Shown here in pieces: positions 24,001 through 30,000 of a stretch of DNA of 64,000 nt (position 1 is its first letter; each line of letters starts with the position of its first letter). Made by a program: the position numbers. The DNA is from an uncultured Spirochaetota bacterium (GTDB lineage: Bacteria > Spirochaetota > Brevinematia > Brevinematales > JAOACQ01): NCBI GenBank assembly GCA_963835575.1, contig CAWIGG010000005.1, positions 384,001 through 448,000 on the forward strand. The letters are read 5' to 3'.

Positions 24001-27000
24001 ACTCCGCCGTTATTCAAATGAAAAAGAAAAAGACTTCCATTCCCCAGGACGCATTCAACCTTTTCCTGAGAAAGGCTTTCCTCGCGAAAAGGAAAACCAT
24101 CTATAACAATTTAAAAGATTCAGGCTTTTCGAAAGAAGCGCTCATTAAAACCGGCGTTGACCCTGCGGTCAGGCCGCAGGATATAACAATCGAGCTTTGG
24201 GAGAAGCTCTATTTGGAATTTGAGAAACTGCAGAAAGCCTTTCAGACATGAGGGTTTTTTCCGGCAGCAACTGCCGGGGGTTTTTACCGGCTGACAGCCA
24301 GGGGGATTGCTACCTTTCTGTCTTTTCGAAAAGACAGAAAGGTAGCACCAAAGAAAGAAAACAGGTCGAGGCCATTTTCATACTAAGCAGTCGGATAATA
24401 CCGAGGAGTGCTATCCGGCTTTTAATAAACTGTTCCTCATTGAAATAGCCTCCTCATGTCGCCGTCCGATGGCTTTATTCGTCGGTTTTGACATCCGTGT
24501 CAAAAGCATGTGCCTCTCTTCTATTATTATAGCAGCGGATGACACGTCAATAAATCGAGATATTTGATGTGCTGATTATGGCCAGGAGGAAAATGGCCTC
24601 GGGTTCGGATGGTTTTTTGAGCGGCTTTTTTGATTAATATTTTTTTCATTTATGATAAACCATTCTTTTTTATCCGGTATAACAGACATTCCTGTCTGTT
24701 AATCTGTTCAAAATTCCTACGCCGTAGATTCTTACCTATCTAATGACTAAAATTAAAGAATTATTTGTTATAAGACTTTGGCTTAATCATTTGAAAAGAT
24801 ATATAATTAATGAATTAAACAACCCTGAATTTTTCAAAGGATTGAAAAATGGAAATGAAGGAAAAGCTGAAATCGTTAAAAATACTTACGGATAATTTCA
24901 AAGCCAACATTAAACAATATAAAAGTCTTTCCTATGACGAAGCCAATACACGGGTGGATTTTATCGATAAATTCTTCGAGATTCTGGACTGGGATGTCAG
25001 AAACGAGCAGGGTTATTCCGAGGATTACAGGGATGTGGTGCGTGAAGACAGGGTCGTCATCGCCGGAAAACCGAAGGCGCCGGATTACAGCTTCCGCATC
25101 GGCGGCGGCCGCAAGTTTTTCGTGGAAGCCAAAAAACCCAGCGTCAACGTTAAAGAGGAAATCGATCCGGCCTATCAAATCCGCCGTTACGGTTATACCG
25201 CGAAAGTTCCCCTGTCAATCCTGACTGACTTTGAGGAATTCGCCGTTTATGACACCCGCATTAAGCCCCACAAAAACGATAAGGCAAGCGTCAGCCGGGT
25301 CTTCTACTGCATTTACGACGAATATGAAAAGCAGTTCGATTTTATTTACAATACTTTTTCTAAAAACGCCATACTCAAGGGGAGCTTCGACAGGTATATC
25401 GGGGAAAGCAAAATCAAAAAAGGCACTTCGGAAGTGGACAGGGAATTCCTCAAGCTTATCTCGGACTGGCGCGAGGAGCTGGCGAAAAACATTGCGCTCC
25501 GGAATTCCGACCTCGATATTTACCAGATCAATTACGCCGTCCAGAAAATCATCGACAGGGTCATATTTCTTCGGATCGCCGAGGACAGGGGCACGGAAAA
25601 GTACGGCAGTATCCGGGAAATGACCGGGCAGAGGAACGCCTACGCTTCCCTGAACTCATTATTTGTCAGGGCAAACGACAAGTACGACAGCGACCTCTTC
25701 AAAATCGAGCCGTTTCTAGTTAGCCTCTCCATAGACAACGATCTTTTGATTGATATTGCTTCACAAATGTACTACCCGGACTGTCCTTATGAGTTTTCCG
25801 TGCTTCCCATCGAGGCGCTGGGAAATATCTATGAGCAGTTCCTCGGCAAGATCATCCGGCTTACCGCCGGACATCAGGCCAAAGTGGAAGAAAAGCCGGA
25901 AGTCAGGAAAGCCGGCGGCGTTTACTACACCCCTCAATACATTGTGAATTATATCGTTGAAAATACCGTGGGCGCCCTATTAAAAGGTGAAACATGCAAC
26001 CCCGGTGCCACAGGCATTCCTGCCTGTGGCAATAATCCCGCGTTAAAAATAAAAAAGAGAAACCTGCCTCACTGGACAATCGATGACGCGACATATTTTA
26101 TCACTTTTAACAGCATTGACAGAAAACCATTATCATCAGAAGATCAGAAAATAGCAATGGATCATATTAAAGAGGGAAATAATAAATTTTATGATTTATT
26201 ATGCGTTGTAATAATGCCGGATCATGTTCATCTCATATTCAAACCCCTGGAAAAGTACAACCTGCCGGATATTATGAAAGGGATAAAGGGCGTATCAGCG
26301 CATAAGATTAACGTGAAAAACGGCGGCACAGGTTCGATCTGGCAGGACGAGTCTTATGACAGGATTATCAGAAATGAAAAAGAACTGATTGAAAAGATAC
26401 ATTATATGTATGATAACCCGAAAAAAGAAGGTTTAACAGAAGAAACTTACGATTATTCCGGCTGGTATTTTAATGAGGAATATTTTGGAAGCCCTGCAGA
26501 TCAGTCTGTTGATAAAGTCACAGACAGGAATGTCTGTAATACCGCTGGTAAAACCAGTAAAAGAAGTGGTACAGACAACCGTGCCACAGACATTCCTGTC
26601 TGTGGTTCACCAATGACCCCCGCTGAAATCTCCAAACTTAAAATCCTCGACCCCGCTTGCGGTTCCGGCTCGTTCCTGATCGGGGCTTATACATACCTCC
26701 TCAATTACCATAAAAAATACTACACCGATGAAAAGAGGATCGGCAAGGCCCTCAAGGAAGGGAAAATCTACCAGATCGACGAAAAGCATTACCATCTCTC
26801 TATAAAGGAAAAGCAGAAGATACTTCTGAACAATATCTACGGCGTGGACATCGACCCTCAGGCCGTGGAAGTGACCAAGCTTTCGCTCTATCTCAAGCTG
26901 ATGGAAAACGAGGCGTCCGAAACGGAAGAATTCCTCGGCGGGCATGAATGGAAAAGCGGAAGGGACAAACTCCTGCCCGGCCTCTCAGACAATATCAAAT

Positions 27001-30000
27001 GCGGCAACAGCCTCATCGCCAGCGATTTTTATGATGACTCAGGCTCCCTGTTCGATAAAGAGACGATCCGGTCGATCAATGCATTTGATTGGGAAAAGGA
27101 GTTCCCGGAAGTATTTAAAACTTCAACGGAAAAAGGTCCACGCAATATCAATGGTGCCACAGGCATTCCTGCCTGTGGTCAGGATCATCCCGGCGAGGGT
27201 AATAAAAAGTCCACAGACAAGAATGTCTGTGACACCAATGTCTGTGGCACCGTATCTAATACCGGCGGGTTTGATGTGGTGATCGGGAACCCGCCGTATA
27301 CCTACTTAATTTCTTTAGAGGAACAAAAATATTATTCTGAGAAATACAAACATCAGGATTATCAAAAAGACCTTTATTTATTATTTTTGGAAAGATACAG
27401 CAAATTATTAAAAATAAATGGGGTTTTAGGTATCATTATATCTAATACCTGGCTTCAATCGTTGACATATCAAAAAATTAGAATCTATATGACATCTTTT
27501 TACAAATGGAAAAAGATTTTACATATACCTGAAAAGGTCTTTAATGCCGTAGTTGATACTCATATTTTAATATTTGAAAGAAAAGATATTTTAGAAACGG
27601 ATGATTATAATTTTGATATTGAAATTTTAAGAAATAATAGTATTGTTCCTTCTCATACACTGTCAATTAAAGATATACCTCGAAACGGTGATTCAATCAA
27701 CATTGTGGCTGATAAATCAAAGAGAGTTATTTATAAAAAAATCATAGGAAAATCAAAACTTTTAAAAGAATTATATACTGTCTATAACGGAGTGAAACCT
27801 TTTGAAAAAGGTAAAGGAAATCCGCCTCAAATGGAAAAGACAATGAAAGAAAAACCATTTGTTAAAGAAGGTAAACGTCCCGGAAAGGAATGGAAACCTT
27901 TATTAAGGGGCAGTTTGATAAACCGTTATATAAATCTTTGGAATAAAGATTACTGGATTCTTTATGGTGAATGGTTGGCTGCGCCAAGGAATCCTAAAAT
28001 ATTTGATGCAGAATTAAAACTGCTTGTTAGGCAGACTGGAGATTCAATAATATCTACAATAGTACAAGAAGGTTATATCGCAAGAGATAATTTACATATT
28101 ATTTTATCGAGTAATAACAATAATTTATTATACCTATTAGGAATATTAAATTCTAAGCTAATGGATTTTGCTTATACTATTTTAAATCCAGAAAAAGGTG
28201 AAGCCTTAGCTCAAGTAAAGAAAGAACATGTTGAATATTTACCTATTAAAACAATAGATTTCTCAAAACATCTAGAAAAAGAAAAGCATGATAAAATGGT
28301 TTCACTCGTCAACAAAATGCTAACTACTCAAAATGAAATCAACAACACCAAAAACGAGCAGGATAAGGCGCTTTTACAGAAGCAGGCCGACCTTCTGGAC
28401 AGGCAGATCGACCGGCTGGTGTATGAGCTGTATGGGTTGACGGAGGAGGAGATCAAGGTGGTAGAGGGATGACGGCGTTGAACTTTTTTAGGCAAAATTT
28501 GCATAGAAAGGAAGTTTTATGAGTTTGACTTACTCGCTTGATAATTCTGATGACTTGTTTGAAAAACTAAAATATGATTACAGTAACTTGAATAATGAAT
28601 TAAATGCTTATACTTTTTTCAATTTTATTATAACAGCATATCATTTGAAGCAGTGGATTGAAGAAGATGAATTAAAATCTGAAACTCGACAGCAAAAAAT
28701 AAAAGAATTTAAAAAATCCTCTTATTATAATATTTGCCGGGACATAACAAATGCAAGTAAGCATTTTAAATTAAATTATATCCCAAAAACACAAGATGCA
28801 AACTTGATGAGTGGATGTGGTGTTGGACGGTGCGGTCATGGCGCTTGCGGAATAGGCGAATGTTCAATAGAAATCATTATGATTGATGGAAGGAAATTTG
28901 ATGCTTTGGAAGTTGCTAATAAAGTTATGAAAATATATTCGGATATATTTGAAAAATAAAGTGATATTATTCCCCAAACATCCGCGCGAAGCCGTCTCAT
29001 CCGCGTCATCCGTGTGGAATTGGGGTCTATAAACCAGCTTTAGTAAAAACAAAAAGGAATTATCAAACAACAGCTTTTCTATTACCGGCGCAGCCCTTAC
29101 TGCTTAACCACCGAACCCTTCCGTGCCATTCCGTGCCATTCTGTGGCCATCCCCTCTCCGTTCACCTTCCCGTCTTCCTACCTTCCTGTAAACCCTTAGC
29201 GTTCCTTCGCGTGGCTTCGCGGATTACCCCATTAGACCCCTTCCTGCCTTGTAAATTCCCAAATTCGCGTTCATTCGCGTGGCCCTTCGATACGCCCTTC
29301 GGGCTACTCAGGGCAAGCCTTGCCGCAAGCATAGGCTTCGTTTCTTCTATTGCATTTACCCTTATGGAAAAGTATAGGAAAGTCGGAAATTGAAGACTTT
29401 TGATTAATTTCCAGTTATTGATCCCGGCGGACGGCGAACTGCCGTCTATGATCCGGCTTACTTCTCCGACAGGAACTTGATCATATCCCTAACGGACAAA
29501 TCGGGGGCCTCCTCCATCGAGACATGGCCGAGGTTGGTGTATATGACAAGTCTCGAGCCGGCGATATCCTGATGGAACCGGTAGGCGTTCTCCACCGGGA
29601 TGACCTTGTCCTTCATTCCCCACATGATCAGCGTCGGCGTGCGGATAGTTTTGATCAGACCCGAGCTGTCCGGTTCGGAGATCCGCATCCTTTTGCCGAT
29701 CTCGTCCCTGTTTCCTTCCCTCATGATAAGCTCATAATAACGGTCTTCGGTCTCCGGCGTCAGCTTGGACCTGTCCGCATAAGCGAGCTCGATATTCTTG
29801 ACCACCATCTTTTTGGTCGTCAAAAATTTTACCAGCTTGCCGAAAAAAGGGATTTTAGCCGATTTGAGCGCCGGCAATGTTGTCGCAGACGGGTAGCCGC
29901 CCGCGTCTTCCAGGACAAGTTTCGAGACCTTGCCGGGATGGGCGACGGTATATTCCCATGCCACCCTTCCGCCCATGGAATTACCGCAGAGAGCAAAATT

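Follow-up and report, generated by a model that had tools for sequence, protein, structure and literature searches.

What is a transposase doing in the middle of a restriction enzyme, and how would it ever be made there? The question is raised by one gene in a stretch of 64,000 nucleotides (the window) from an uncultured Spirochaetota bacterium, whose genome is a draft of 7 contigs amounting to 4.39 Mb at 41.5% G+C. A preliminary description had made the gene the home of a REPtron, a REP-associated tyrosine transposase (RAYT) of the HUH/Y1 kind together with its REP hairpins, living as an in-frame passenger of its host. That idea is supported by what follows. We put at about 0.7 the probability that a REPtron entered a type IIG gene at a loop that tolerates insertion and has been kept there as one uninterrupted reading frame.

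One gene, two inserts

The gene, which belongs to a set of five paralogues that the genome carries, is laid out as follows.

24778..24807, plus strand: best sigma-70-like site 5' of the gene, TTGGCT-18-TATAAT; a match to consensus only
24849..28472, plus strand: chimeric type IIG (Eco57I/MmeI-like) restriction-methylase gene, stop codon included; a single ORF of 1207 aa
24849..25994, plus strand: host part 1 (aa 1-382), comprising the nuclease and a helical region; PD...EAK lies at aa 78-97; from homologues and motif positions
25995..26612, plus strand: insert 1 at aa ~383-588 (uncertain by +/-3 codons at either edge), REP(+) - RAYT - REP(-) - REP(+) in the host frame; from alignment
26649..26669, plus strand: methylase motif I, DPACGSG, aa 601-607, 12 codons past insert 1
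27120..27263, plus strand: insert 2, aa 758-805, a REP doublet without transposase; from alignment
27264..28469, plus strand: host part 3, aa 806-1207, remaining methylase and TaqI_C specificity domain; low G+C, GC3 0.286
27288..27299, plus strand: methylase motif IV, NPPY, aa 814-817; from motif position

Pfam finds Eco57I (E 5.5e-39), TaqI_C, N6_Mtase, MmeI_Mtase and HSDR_N (26.4 bits against a cut-off of 25.1) in the 1207-aa protein, along with Y1_Tnp. The type IIG layout is all there on one chain: an N-terminal PD-(D/E)XK nuclease, a gamma-type N6-adenine methylase with motifs I and IV, and a specificity domain, the motifs PD..EAK, DPACGSG and NPPY being intact. Host part 1 is 75-78% identical to insert-free homologues, G008:C83 and, in the same genome, C2:23594-26401. 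The 120 best homologues of the enzyme span 714-1220 aa, and alignment of the protein with nine that are insert-free placed the edges of the inserts. Insert 1 is absent from all nine and insert 2 from eight; the ninth, L027, has an unrelated insert at the same site. Both loops differ in length among relatives, with unrelated repeats in L021 and L027. This confirms the earlier description: 24849-28472 is one open type IIG gene, and the two inserts in its frame are absent from the closest homologues. The earlier count of a Y1_Tnp domain in one homologue of 120 did not hold; with aa 1-381 as query it is three of 120, and in the other two (P0189 and P0248) the site of insert 2 holds a Y1 domain of another kind. 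With 206 aa inserted ahead of motif I, the host enzyme may be inactive.

The coding parts of the transposase lie on the plus strand within insert 1.

26031..26483, plus strand: RAYT core, aa 395-545; from NF047646, 4ER8, AlphaFold2 and Foldseek
26064-26075, plus strand: RAYT motif LPHW, from motif position
26217-26234, plus strand: HUH motif PDHVHL, from motif position
26340-26372, plus strand: RAYT motif WQDESYDRIIR, from motif position
26400-26420, plus strand: Tyr motif HYMYDNP, from motif position

Y1_Tnp matches aa 440-499 (E 1.9e-8), and the NCBIfam model for REP-associated tyrosine transposases, NF047646, scores 84.9 bits at aa 408-537 against a curated cut-off of 80; in a six-frame search of the genome it scores 89.9 bits, and the RAYT is present as one copy only. 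The best match in the PDB is TnpArep (4ER8; E 3.9e-8 over aa 410-542), which aligns PEHMHC with PDHVHL and DYIYINP with HYMYDNP, the first Y of the latter being what we take to be the catalytic residue. AlphaFold2 gives the core a pLDDT of 93-98, and Foldseek returns 4er8_A as the top match for the predicted core (E 8.9e-9, TM 0.52/0.63, 24% identity). The REP-coded flanks, at 54-64, score as linkers would.

The transposase has no start codon of its own, just as the preliminary description had it. There is no in-frame ATG, GTG or TTG between host V374 and RAYT M437 and no stop codon in the insert, although weak internal initiation at ATT, ATA or CTG codons may occur. No stand-alone RAYT gene with its own start and stop is found here; the frame simply continues into the host, and of the six frames through insert 1 the host's alone is open. 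GC3 in insert 1 is 0.38-0.39 (0.383 over 25995-26612), against 0.62 (0.618 for host part 1) and 0.65 in the adjoining host parts, and a search of 40 related genomes found no close relative of this RAYT, the best match having 39% identity over part of the length. The two observations together suggest that the insert is of foreign origin.

Hairpins on either side

A search of the whole 4.39-Mb genome gives 10 matches to the pattern ACAGRCA-N4-TGYCTGT and none to a reversed control pattern. Five of the hairpins are inside the gene, at 26010, 26520, 26586, 27159 and 27213, and one is in a paralogue, as previously counted; to these we add the place of a sixth local one, upstream of the ATG. Three of them, H1 to H3, bracket the RAYT in both orientations.

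24682..24699, plus strand: sixth local REP hairpin, 150 nt 5' of the ATG; from pattern search
26004..26030, plus strand: REP H1, foot GGTGCC, stem ACAGGCA, loop TTCC, translated ATGIPACG; from pattern search and fold
26517..26543, minus strand: REP H2, translated TDRNVC; from pattern search and fold
26581..26608, plus strand: REP H3, stem ACAGACA, translated ATDIPVCG; from pattern search and fold
27153..27179, plus strand: REP H4, identical to H1 across 26 nt; from sequence comparison
27210..27251, minus strand: REP H5 and a duplicated half REP (27237-27251); from pattern search and fold

The hairpin at 24682-24699 adjoins a copy of an unrelated genome repeat that has at least 22 copies.

Folded as single-stranded DNA, the hairpins reach -6 to -14 kcal/mol, where shuffled sequences give -1 to -3; H1 comes to -14.1 (shuffle mean -3.1) and H2 to -6.0 (shuffles -1.5). 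The foot at this locus is GGTGCC or GGTATT (GTGC/GTAT), and in relatives of this RAYT it is GGTAG. Insert 2 has a core of 99 nt (27153-27251) with inverted ends, GGTGCCACAGGCATT / AATGTCTGTGGCACC, and folds into a single long hairpin of -25.1 kcal/mol. Since H4 matches H1 over 26 nt and the ACAGGCA stem is found in these two alone of the 10 genome hairpins, the identity points to a copy made inside the gene. In the paralogue (C2:249429-252521) the corresponding place in the protein has an insert made up of REP alone, which contains the hairpin. Inverted doublets make up H2/H3, H4/H5 and the paralogue insert. So few REPs, 10 genome-wide, give no hint that a REP population is thriving.

Recurrence, and other ways to read the locus

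All 40 long matches to this RAYT hold an internal, near full-length RAYT domain, the hosts being type ISP/IIG enzymes, RecG, PriA, ValRS, AlaRS, PurH and ThiE; 17 of the 40 are ISP, IIG or MmeI-type enzymes. Among the best 150 cluster representatives 31 are at least 344 aa long, with a host Pfam family in 28 of the 30 scanned, and across matches and representatives the hosts also include DnaK, MurB and Ham1. Of the 80 best genome loci, 71 are free-standing RAYTs and eight are internal, in each case inserted in an ISP or IIG enzyme and with the same REP in frame. The hosts named in the preliminary description are borne out; the embedded RAYTs are not one clade. A tree of 160 rows intersperses embedded with free-standing RAYTs, requires at least nine changes of state, and has free-standing forms in the rows nearest to ours. 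Embedded RAYTs are thus polyphyletic, a minority in a mostly free-standing family, and may represent no more than random insertions that happened to survive, rather than a way of life.

A first objection is that we are looking at a relic, a restriction gene hit by a REPtron and decaying, its frame open through recency and both enzyme and RAYT dead. The gene is non-essential and has paralogues, the REPs are few and their feet degenerate. But 1207 codons remain open at 41.5% G+C, and when the 116 codons of the inserts that lie beyond the RAYT core are shuffled, just 423 of 200,000 trials (0.2%) come out free of stops, before any requirement of frame or orientation; two separate inserts are both in frame. 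Besides the host motifs, the RAYT holds all 26 columns that are invariant across a 21-sequence family alignment. Embedded copies elsewhere have lasted beyond synonymous saturation under constraint: among 40 embedded RAYTs the HUH is kept in all and the Tyr in 39, and in 10 of 12 compared pairs, synonymous sites being saturated, RAYT pN (0.09-0.27) is below host pN (0.18-0.52), a measure taken from other lineages' embedded copies and not from the single copy here. Two pairs are reversed, L033-L063 (RAYT 0.182, host 0.154) and L033-L101 (0.614 against 0.428, over 112 codons only and possibly poorly aligned). We regard a relic as unlikely.

The same constraint would suit a second reading, in which the enzyme recruited the RAYT, for example as a single-stranded DNA nuclease or hairpin-binding module for defense, and the host benefits. 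It would fit, too, with restriction-modification enzymes hosting every one of the eight internal inserts and 17 of the 40 long proteins, and with the two further homologues whose second loop holds another Y1 domain. Against it, the family also sits in ValRS, AlaRS, PurH, ThiE, MurB, DnaK and Ham1, hosts with no obvious need of a nuclease; the insert retains its REP hairpins, the marks of a mobile element; the closest homologues manage without it; and embedding arose repeatedly from free-standing RAYTs. Recruitment is, in our judgment, decidedly unlikely.

Could the insert instead be a reversible switch, RAYT excision or REP-REP recombination switching the enzyme from impaired to full form and back, as in phase variation? 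All five in-gene REPs are in one codon phase and H1 lies 576 nt (3 x 192) from H3, so any REP-to-REP deletion would stay in frame and leave one REP, and the REP-only insert in the same loop of the paralogue is the leftover to be expected. That paralogue, however, is just 44% identical across its N-terminal region (aa 6-397), an excision switch has no need of an in-frame insert, and the articles consulted show no precise excision by a RAYT. Nor is the excised form among the reads of the two sediment metagenomes, the only runs in which the stretch was matched, which hold fragments only, none crossing an insert junction. A switch seems very improbable. That the chimera arose by mis-assembly at short repeats or from a strain mixture is scarcely credible even for a draft genome: a RAYT in single copy leaves no second locus for mis-joining, random errors disrupt frames rather than make two in-frame inserts, a 151-nt contig in run X1 is identical to 26189-26339, and the same architecture recurs in independent assemblies of other organisms (nine members of the P0189 cluster; NCBI, JGI and ENA copies of P0248, P0022 and P0040).

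A probable passenger and its known relatives

We therefore return to the passenger. The REPtron would have entered the loop between the helical region and motif I. Because it has neither start nor stop codon, it would be transcribed from the host promoter, for which TTGGCT-18-TATAAT is only a candidate, and translated from the host ATG. In the protein the RAYT would be an autonomously folded domain on two flexible, REP-encoded linkers of ~29 and ~42 aa. If TnpAREP and the IS200/IS605 family are a guide, REP hairpins on single-stranded DNA would be the substrate that it binds and cuts, and a REP doublet would have been copied from insert 1 into a second permissive loop ahead of motif IV. Selection on the host gene would hold the frame open, as imprecise deletion would ruin the enzyme, and the passenger would therefore be sheltered.

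The nearest known system is the REPtron of Escherichia coli (TnpAREP/RAYT, PDB 4ER8), with which ours shares the HUH/Y1 fold, the aligned HUH and Tyr motifs, and short hairpins bearing a 5' foot on both sides and in both orientations. It differs in a reading frame that, with no start or stop, makes it an inner part of another enzyme, in its mere 10 REPs, in a foot of GTGC or GTAT rather than GTAG, and in a sequence only 24% identical to 4ER8.

Three articles bear on what is already published. Di Nocera et al. 2013 (PMC3733652) describe in-frame intragenic REPs and Rickettsia palindromic elements, palindromic mobile repeats within genes for known proteins; these are often dimers coding for 20-30 aa, at times two per gene. 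Insert 2 and the paralogue insert are exactly of that kind. Only repeats are involved there, whereas here a transposase gene lies in frame between them, and searching that article by term turned up no fused or chimeric forms. Quentin et al. 2018 (PMC6006769) give REP families a GT[AG]G foot, unlike the one at our locus, and place REPs in frame inside tnpAREP in subclass 2.4, a trait called unique to it. Relatives L038 and L063, in which an in-frame REP separates HUH from Tyr, and the GT[AG]G-type foot of relatives resemble that subclass, but at our locus the nesting is reversed, the RAYT lying within a host gene. Long RAYT proteins are known to that source too, where, as the preliminary description had said, "unexpectedly long proteins" were discarded as gene fusions or annotation errors. 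IStrons (PMC4227781) join a group I intron to an IS200/IS605-family element, which a ribozyme removes from RNA; they too render a Y1-transposase element harmless within genes, but here the means would be in-frame translation, and 25700-27500 has no Rfam match at E <= 0.1.

The likeness to inteins drawn in the preliminary description stands as a way of life only. Both would be selfish in-frame coding elements in a conserved protein, using the host's expression signals and protected against loss because the host gene is under selection. No Hint/intein domain is among the Pfam matches of the protein (E <= 0.01), and 206 aa leaves no room for one; nothing points to splicing, and the mature protein should still contain the insert. 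We found no published description of RAYTs habitually translated in frame inside host proteins. The passenger reading would mean an element that can be produced solely as part of its host enzyme, a habit that recurs in many other host proteins.

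A transposase within the frame of a restriction-methylase

The gene at 24849-28472 (+) reads as one uninterrupted frame of 1207 aa. Pfam recognises in it the modules of a type IIG restriction-methylase, namely an N-terminal HSDR_N, Eco57I, N6_Mtase, MmeI_Mtase and, for specificity, TaqI_C. It also recognises Y1_Tnp at aa 440-499, and the NCBIfam model for REP-associated tyrosine transposases (RAYTs) scores 84.9 bits over aa 408-537 (cut-off 80). We aligned the product with nine homologues, two paralogues from the same genome and seven genes from related genomes. The two in-frame inserts proposed in the preliminary description are there, at aa ~383-588 and aa 758-805, and the closest homologues (75-78% identity over aa 1-380) have neither. 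Insert 1 ends 12 codons ahead of methylase motif I (DPACGSG, aa 601-607); insert 2 directly precedes GGFDVVIGNPPY, the stretch with motif IV. Both carry REPs, the short hairpin repeats of RAYTs (H1 to H5), whose translation would give junction peptides such as KGETCNPGATGIPACG and TDIPVCGSPMTPAEISK.

Parts of the two inserts
26004-26030, +, REP(+) of insert 1 (H1)
26031-26483, +, RAYT coding sequence of insert 1
26517-26543, -, REP(-) of insert 1 (H2)
26581-26608, +, REP(+) of insert 1 (H3)
27153-27179, +, REP(+) of insert 2 (H4)
27210-27236, -, REP(-) of insert 2 (H5)
27237-27251, duplicated half REP of insert 2

The RAYT was said to have no start codon of its own. This is right for ATG, GTG and TTG, none of which occurs in frame from host V374 to M437, a stretch with only the rare starts ATT, ATA and CTG; M437 itself lies past the first strand and the LPHW motif. 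Free-standing relatives start M-x-x-LKITRRHLPHW and stop shortly past GWYFNE; the embedded copy reads NNPALKIKKRNLPHW and then continues without a stop. All 26 invariant columns of a 21-sequence family alignment are present, and the HUH (PDHVHL) and HYMYDNP motifs match PEHMHC and DYIYINP of TnpAREP (PDB 4ER8, E 3.9e-8). A combined alignment of host and RAYT for folding aa 260-1000 was poor (host rows ~20% identical to the query, 1997 columns), so insert 1 was folded alone. With an 87-sequence alignment, AlphaFold2 gave pLDDT 93-98 for insert residues 30-165 and 54-64 for the REP-coded flanks; the low confidence reported earlier for this fold came from a shallow alignment and does not hold for the core. 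Foldseek against solved structures returned 4er8_A as the best match (E 8.9e-9), followed by IS200/IS605 transposases. Insert 1 contains no intein domain in Pfam and no RNA family in Rfam.

Read in six frames, insert 1 is open in the host frame alone, with 9 to 22 stops in each of the other five. Outside the RAYT core the inserts comprise 116 codons, and these were stop-free in 423 of 200,000 shuffles, a count that excludes the further demands of right orientation and three in-frame junctions. Therefore the frame was kept open by selection, or the element is built open, or both.

The surroundings also deserve description. There are five type IIG paralogues in the genome (C2:15987-33147 and C2:249429-252521), three of them within 17 kb on contig C2, with 40-75% identity to the gene over the N-terminal region. 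Immediately downstream of the gene, at 28519-28959, lies a 146-aa ORF that is Cys/Gly-rich near its C-terminus (GCGVGRCGHGACGIGEC) and matches no Pfam family at E <= 0.01.

Hairpins, landing loops and composition

The hairpin pattern ACAGRCA-N4-TGYCTGT has ten matches in the 4.39-Mb genome and its reversed control has none. Five of the ten are within the gene, one is at 24682-24699 (150 nt 5' of the ATG), one is at the same loop of the paralogue C2:249429-252521, reading ..ENTVGALLKGET-AATDRNVCGTTGIPAGGG-MPPEEIEKIKILD.., and the remaining three are intergenic, adjoining an unrelated repeat of at least 22 copies. On single-stranded DNA the hairpins have folding energies of -6 to -14 kcal/mol, compared with -1 to -3 after shuffling. 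The feet of the REPs in this gene read GGTGCC or GGTATT. The REP doublet that makes up insert 2 has a 99-nt core with inverted ends, which can fold as one long hairpin. Over 26 nt H4 matches H1 exactly, and the two share an ACAGGCA stem found nowhere else in the genome, so the pair looks like a copying event inside the gene. We set aside gene conversion with the REP-bearing paralogue: in blastn the similarity is confined to a stretch ahead of the insert that is conserved in general (77% over 140 nt), without a local peak.

A repeat of ~250 nt (core CCGTTCCCGAGGCCATTTTCC...) lies at 24370-24640 and at about 22 places in the genome (at least 22), for example C4:784545, C4:909490 and C2:79137. 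A REP hairpin lies next to four of its copies, and one copy takes up the gap from ksgA to the R-M gene. Since one copy neighbours the Y1 transposase gene that ranks second (C4:784617-785048), the repeat may belong to that gene. It matches no Rfam family, and Rfam gave merely sub-threshold microRNA-like matches on a palindrome in the intergenic stretch 24100-24900.

Judged from their relatives, both host loops are landing pads. Site 1, the loop of insert 1, holds inserts of 15 and 33 aa in relatives, and site 2 a 26-aa insert in the homologue locus L027. The inserts of L021 and L027 have a different common repeat, CTTCGACTYCGCTCRGGG; at L021:2607-2790 and L027:3057-3190 a short repeat, CTTCGACTYCGCTCRGGGRAC..., is in frame at the same two loops, reading ..PLRLRSGN.. 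or ..STPLGDRS... This is a second small-element family on these landing pads. The earlier count of Y1_Tnp in the query alone (1 of 120) needs correcting: with aa 1-381 as query, three of the 120 best homologues have it, namely the query itself, P0189 (1220 aa) and P0248 (1132 aa). In P0189 and P0248 the Y1 domain is of another, IS200-like kind and sits at site 2, with NF047646 scores of 50.8 and 57.2 bits, below the cut-off. This Y1/HUH domain is in frame before GGFDVVIGNPPY, at aa ~560-700 of P0189 and aa ~578-720 of P0248; P0189 has a long low-complexity Ser/Thr/His tract after it, and P0248 has no obvious REP-coded linkers at the protein level.

GC3 along the gene
Host part before insert 1 (aa 1-382): 0.62
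Insert 1: 0.38
Methylase segment after insert 1 (aa 589-757): 0.65
C-terminal specificity part (aa 806-1207): 0.29

The gene is thus a compositional mosaic in which insert 1 is foreign to its flanks, and the specificity half looks exchanged from an A+T-rich source. None of 40 related genomes yielded a near relative of this RAYT; the top match was partial, at 39% identity, and came from other Y1 families. In its own genome it is the sole match above the family cut-off; four other loci have more distant Y1 genes.

RAYTs embedded in other proteins

A protein search for longer RAYT-bearing chains gave 40 matches, all with a near full-length RAYT domain, which is internal in 36 and at or near an end in four, of which P0018 is a C-terminal fusion and the other three are partial records. 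Type ISP and IIG/MmeI enzymes serve as hosts, as do RecG, PriA, ValRS (at two sites), AlaRS, PurH, ThiE, a DNA methylase and DUF1156. This bears out the preliminary description's mention of ISP/IIG enzymes, RecG, PriA, ValRS, AlaRS and PurH. Their flanks contain translated REPs (VGQTFLSD/V, TDKNVCST, QTGMSDLP; G+C-rich type: GTGVPPV / HRRDACAT). When matches of similar length were sought, 382 free-standing RAYTs of ~150 aa came up at the same 47-60% identity. At E <= 1e-30 an exhaustive profile search gave 226 cluster representatives. Among the top 150 are 31 of at least 344 aa, and a host Pfam family was present in 28 of the 30 scanned (all but P0020, a known RecG). The profile search added MurB, Hsp70/DnaK, Ham1, a SLOG/LOG protein, SAM methylases, a TsaD-family protein and a ferredoxin-type protein. 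Independent assemblies and sources share embedded proteins (nine members of one cluster, 13 of a PriA cluster), on contigs of up to 1.4 Mb.

At the DNA level, 546 stretches of species-representative genomes encode relatives of this RAYT. The best 80 comprise 71 free-standing loci, some of them C-terminal fusions or N-terminal extensions (e.g. L084, ThiD2-ThiE-RAYT), eight internal inserts (L031, L032, L033, L034, L036, L038, L049 and L101) and L063, truncated by its contig end. Every internal insert among these 80 is in an R-M enzyme: by Pfam, L032, L033, L038, L101 and also L063 are type ISP, and L031, L036 and L049 Eco57I-type; L034 is IIG-type as read from its protein sequence. In the IIG-embedded loci the insertion loop is the same as in our gene. 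Embedded loci carry the same REP in frame, GGTAGR-ACAGRCA-TTCY-TGYCTGT, with a maximum of 21 copies in one ORF. This is the 1648-aa type ISP ORF L101:1880-6823, in which the RAYT is accompanied by 21 REP cores at eight separate places and ~20 tandem QTQQP(V/A)(G/E) units, an extreme load of translated repeats. L038 (ORF aa ~125-135) and L063 (aa ~822-832) have a REP in frame within the embedded RAYT, between HUH and Tyr, making three levels: REP within RAYT within R-M gene. Quentin et al. (2018, PMC6006769) give in-frame REPs within tnpAREP as unique to subclass 2.4, so, from this trait, the family is probably subclass 2.4.

How might a stop-less element arise? The RAYT stop is the TAG of the next REP's GTAG foot in nine of the 71 free-standing loci, so this is a possible route and not the rule. 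Some free-standing copies are open upstream too, through REPs. The module is thus often near one REP-to-REP open frame. A change of the foot from GTAG to GTGG or GTGC could then open it into a stop-less element.

A 160-row tree of the RAYT core, its free rows being the 120 nearest to the query and some short-contig 'free' proteins perhaps fragments of embedded ones, has embedded rows scattered and requires at least nine changes between free and embedded. This does not support a single embedded clade. The PriA rows form one starred group, and our RAYT stands beside free-standing P0123, P0133 and P0099, not with other IIG-embedded rows. Recurrent embedding out of a mostly free-standing RAYT family is supported by the tree.

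How the embedded RAYT may live

The anatomy of the chimeric gene, as assembled, is real and exceeds chance. Our best reading, at a probability of roughly 0.7, is that it holds an in-frame REPtron (RAYT plus REPs) that would be produced solely as a tethered internal domain of the type IIG enzyme. The rival that survives best, a decaying relic, seems to us improbable. Of the 40 long proteins with a RAYT, every one retains HUH and 39 the tyrosine, for which P0024 (in PurH) has Asp. Synonymous sites are saturated in embedded pairs of the same site and host type (pS 0.67-0.85), so we report pN and pS instead of dN/dS. In 10 of 12 pairs, drawn from other lineages and not from the window's single copy, RAYT pN (0.09-0.27) is lower than host pN (0.18-0.52), for example 0.092 vs 0.211 for L033-L038 and 0.207 vs 0.372 for L034-L036. 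Two pairs go the opposite way (L033-L063, 0.182 vs 0.154; L033-L101, 0.614 vs 0.428 over 112 codons only), and dN/dS is 0.05-0.12 in the four computable pairs. A domain recruited by its host, on which the same figures bear, we rate somewhat lower still.

The five REPs of the gene and that of the paralogue all have ACA as a codon, and read ATGIPACG or ATDIPVCG (+) and TDRNVC or TDKNVC (-). This gene's (+) REPs are 3/3 in the ACA phase; in other embedded ORFs 42 of 43 follow the alternative open phase (QTFLS or QAFLP), and by reading the sequence the third phase would place the TAG of the GTAG foot in frame. The (-) REPs of other embedded ORFs (n=19) use two of the three phases. Tandem copies are non-independent, so we give no probability for the phase bias. 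The phase agreement means that any REP-to-REP deletion in the gene would be in frame (H1-H3, for instance, removes 576 nt); a reversible switch is nevertheless a reading we hold very unlikely. An artefact has the least claim of all. The runs listed for the gene are two sediment metagenomes (0.06 share of words each), none of them RNA. They have fragments on the gene, none across a junction, and one 151-nt run contig is identical to 26189-26339; the joints in run fragments derive from other organisms' homologues or REPs.

RAYTs are commonly seen as domesticated, stand-alone, single-copy genes, and we know of no role established for them in the cell. The tethered REPtron could be one instance of something broader. 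Tentatively, and with the odds somewhat against it, we propose that for HUH transposases embedding is a way of life in its own right, one that recurs, and no accident. The element would move as one stop-free frame, REP to REP, and its hairpin DNA would double as code for flexible linkers that let the transposase fold beside host domains. Transcription and translation would be borrowed from the host gene, selection on which would shield the element from deletion. Inteins are sheltered in the same way; the embedded RAYT would differ in not being spliced out. In DNA enzymes such as R-M translocases, RecG and PriA the host part may bring the RAYT to single-stranded DNA.

REP/RAYT systems are known, and so are in-frame REPs: Di Nocera et al. 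(2013, PMC3733652) describe them in genes whose products are known, frequently enzymes of DNA repair or tRNA synthetases. In searchable full-text literature, that is, outside subscription journals and the supplements of Quentin et al. (2018) and Di Nocera et al. (2013), we found no description of a RAYT gene, or of a transposase, within the frame of another protein.

For annotation there is a warning here: a peptide like VGQTFLSV, TDKNVCST or ATGIPACG in a conserved protein is a translated REP. A whole RAYT module can, it appears, reside in the frames of at least a dozen unrelated host families, essential ones included, with the transposase still under constraint. If confirmed, this would account for a class of 'fusion' annotations discarded in surveys, and selfish elements would have, next to inteins and IStrons, a second way of sitting in a gene without killing it.
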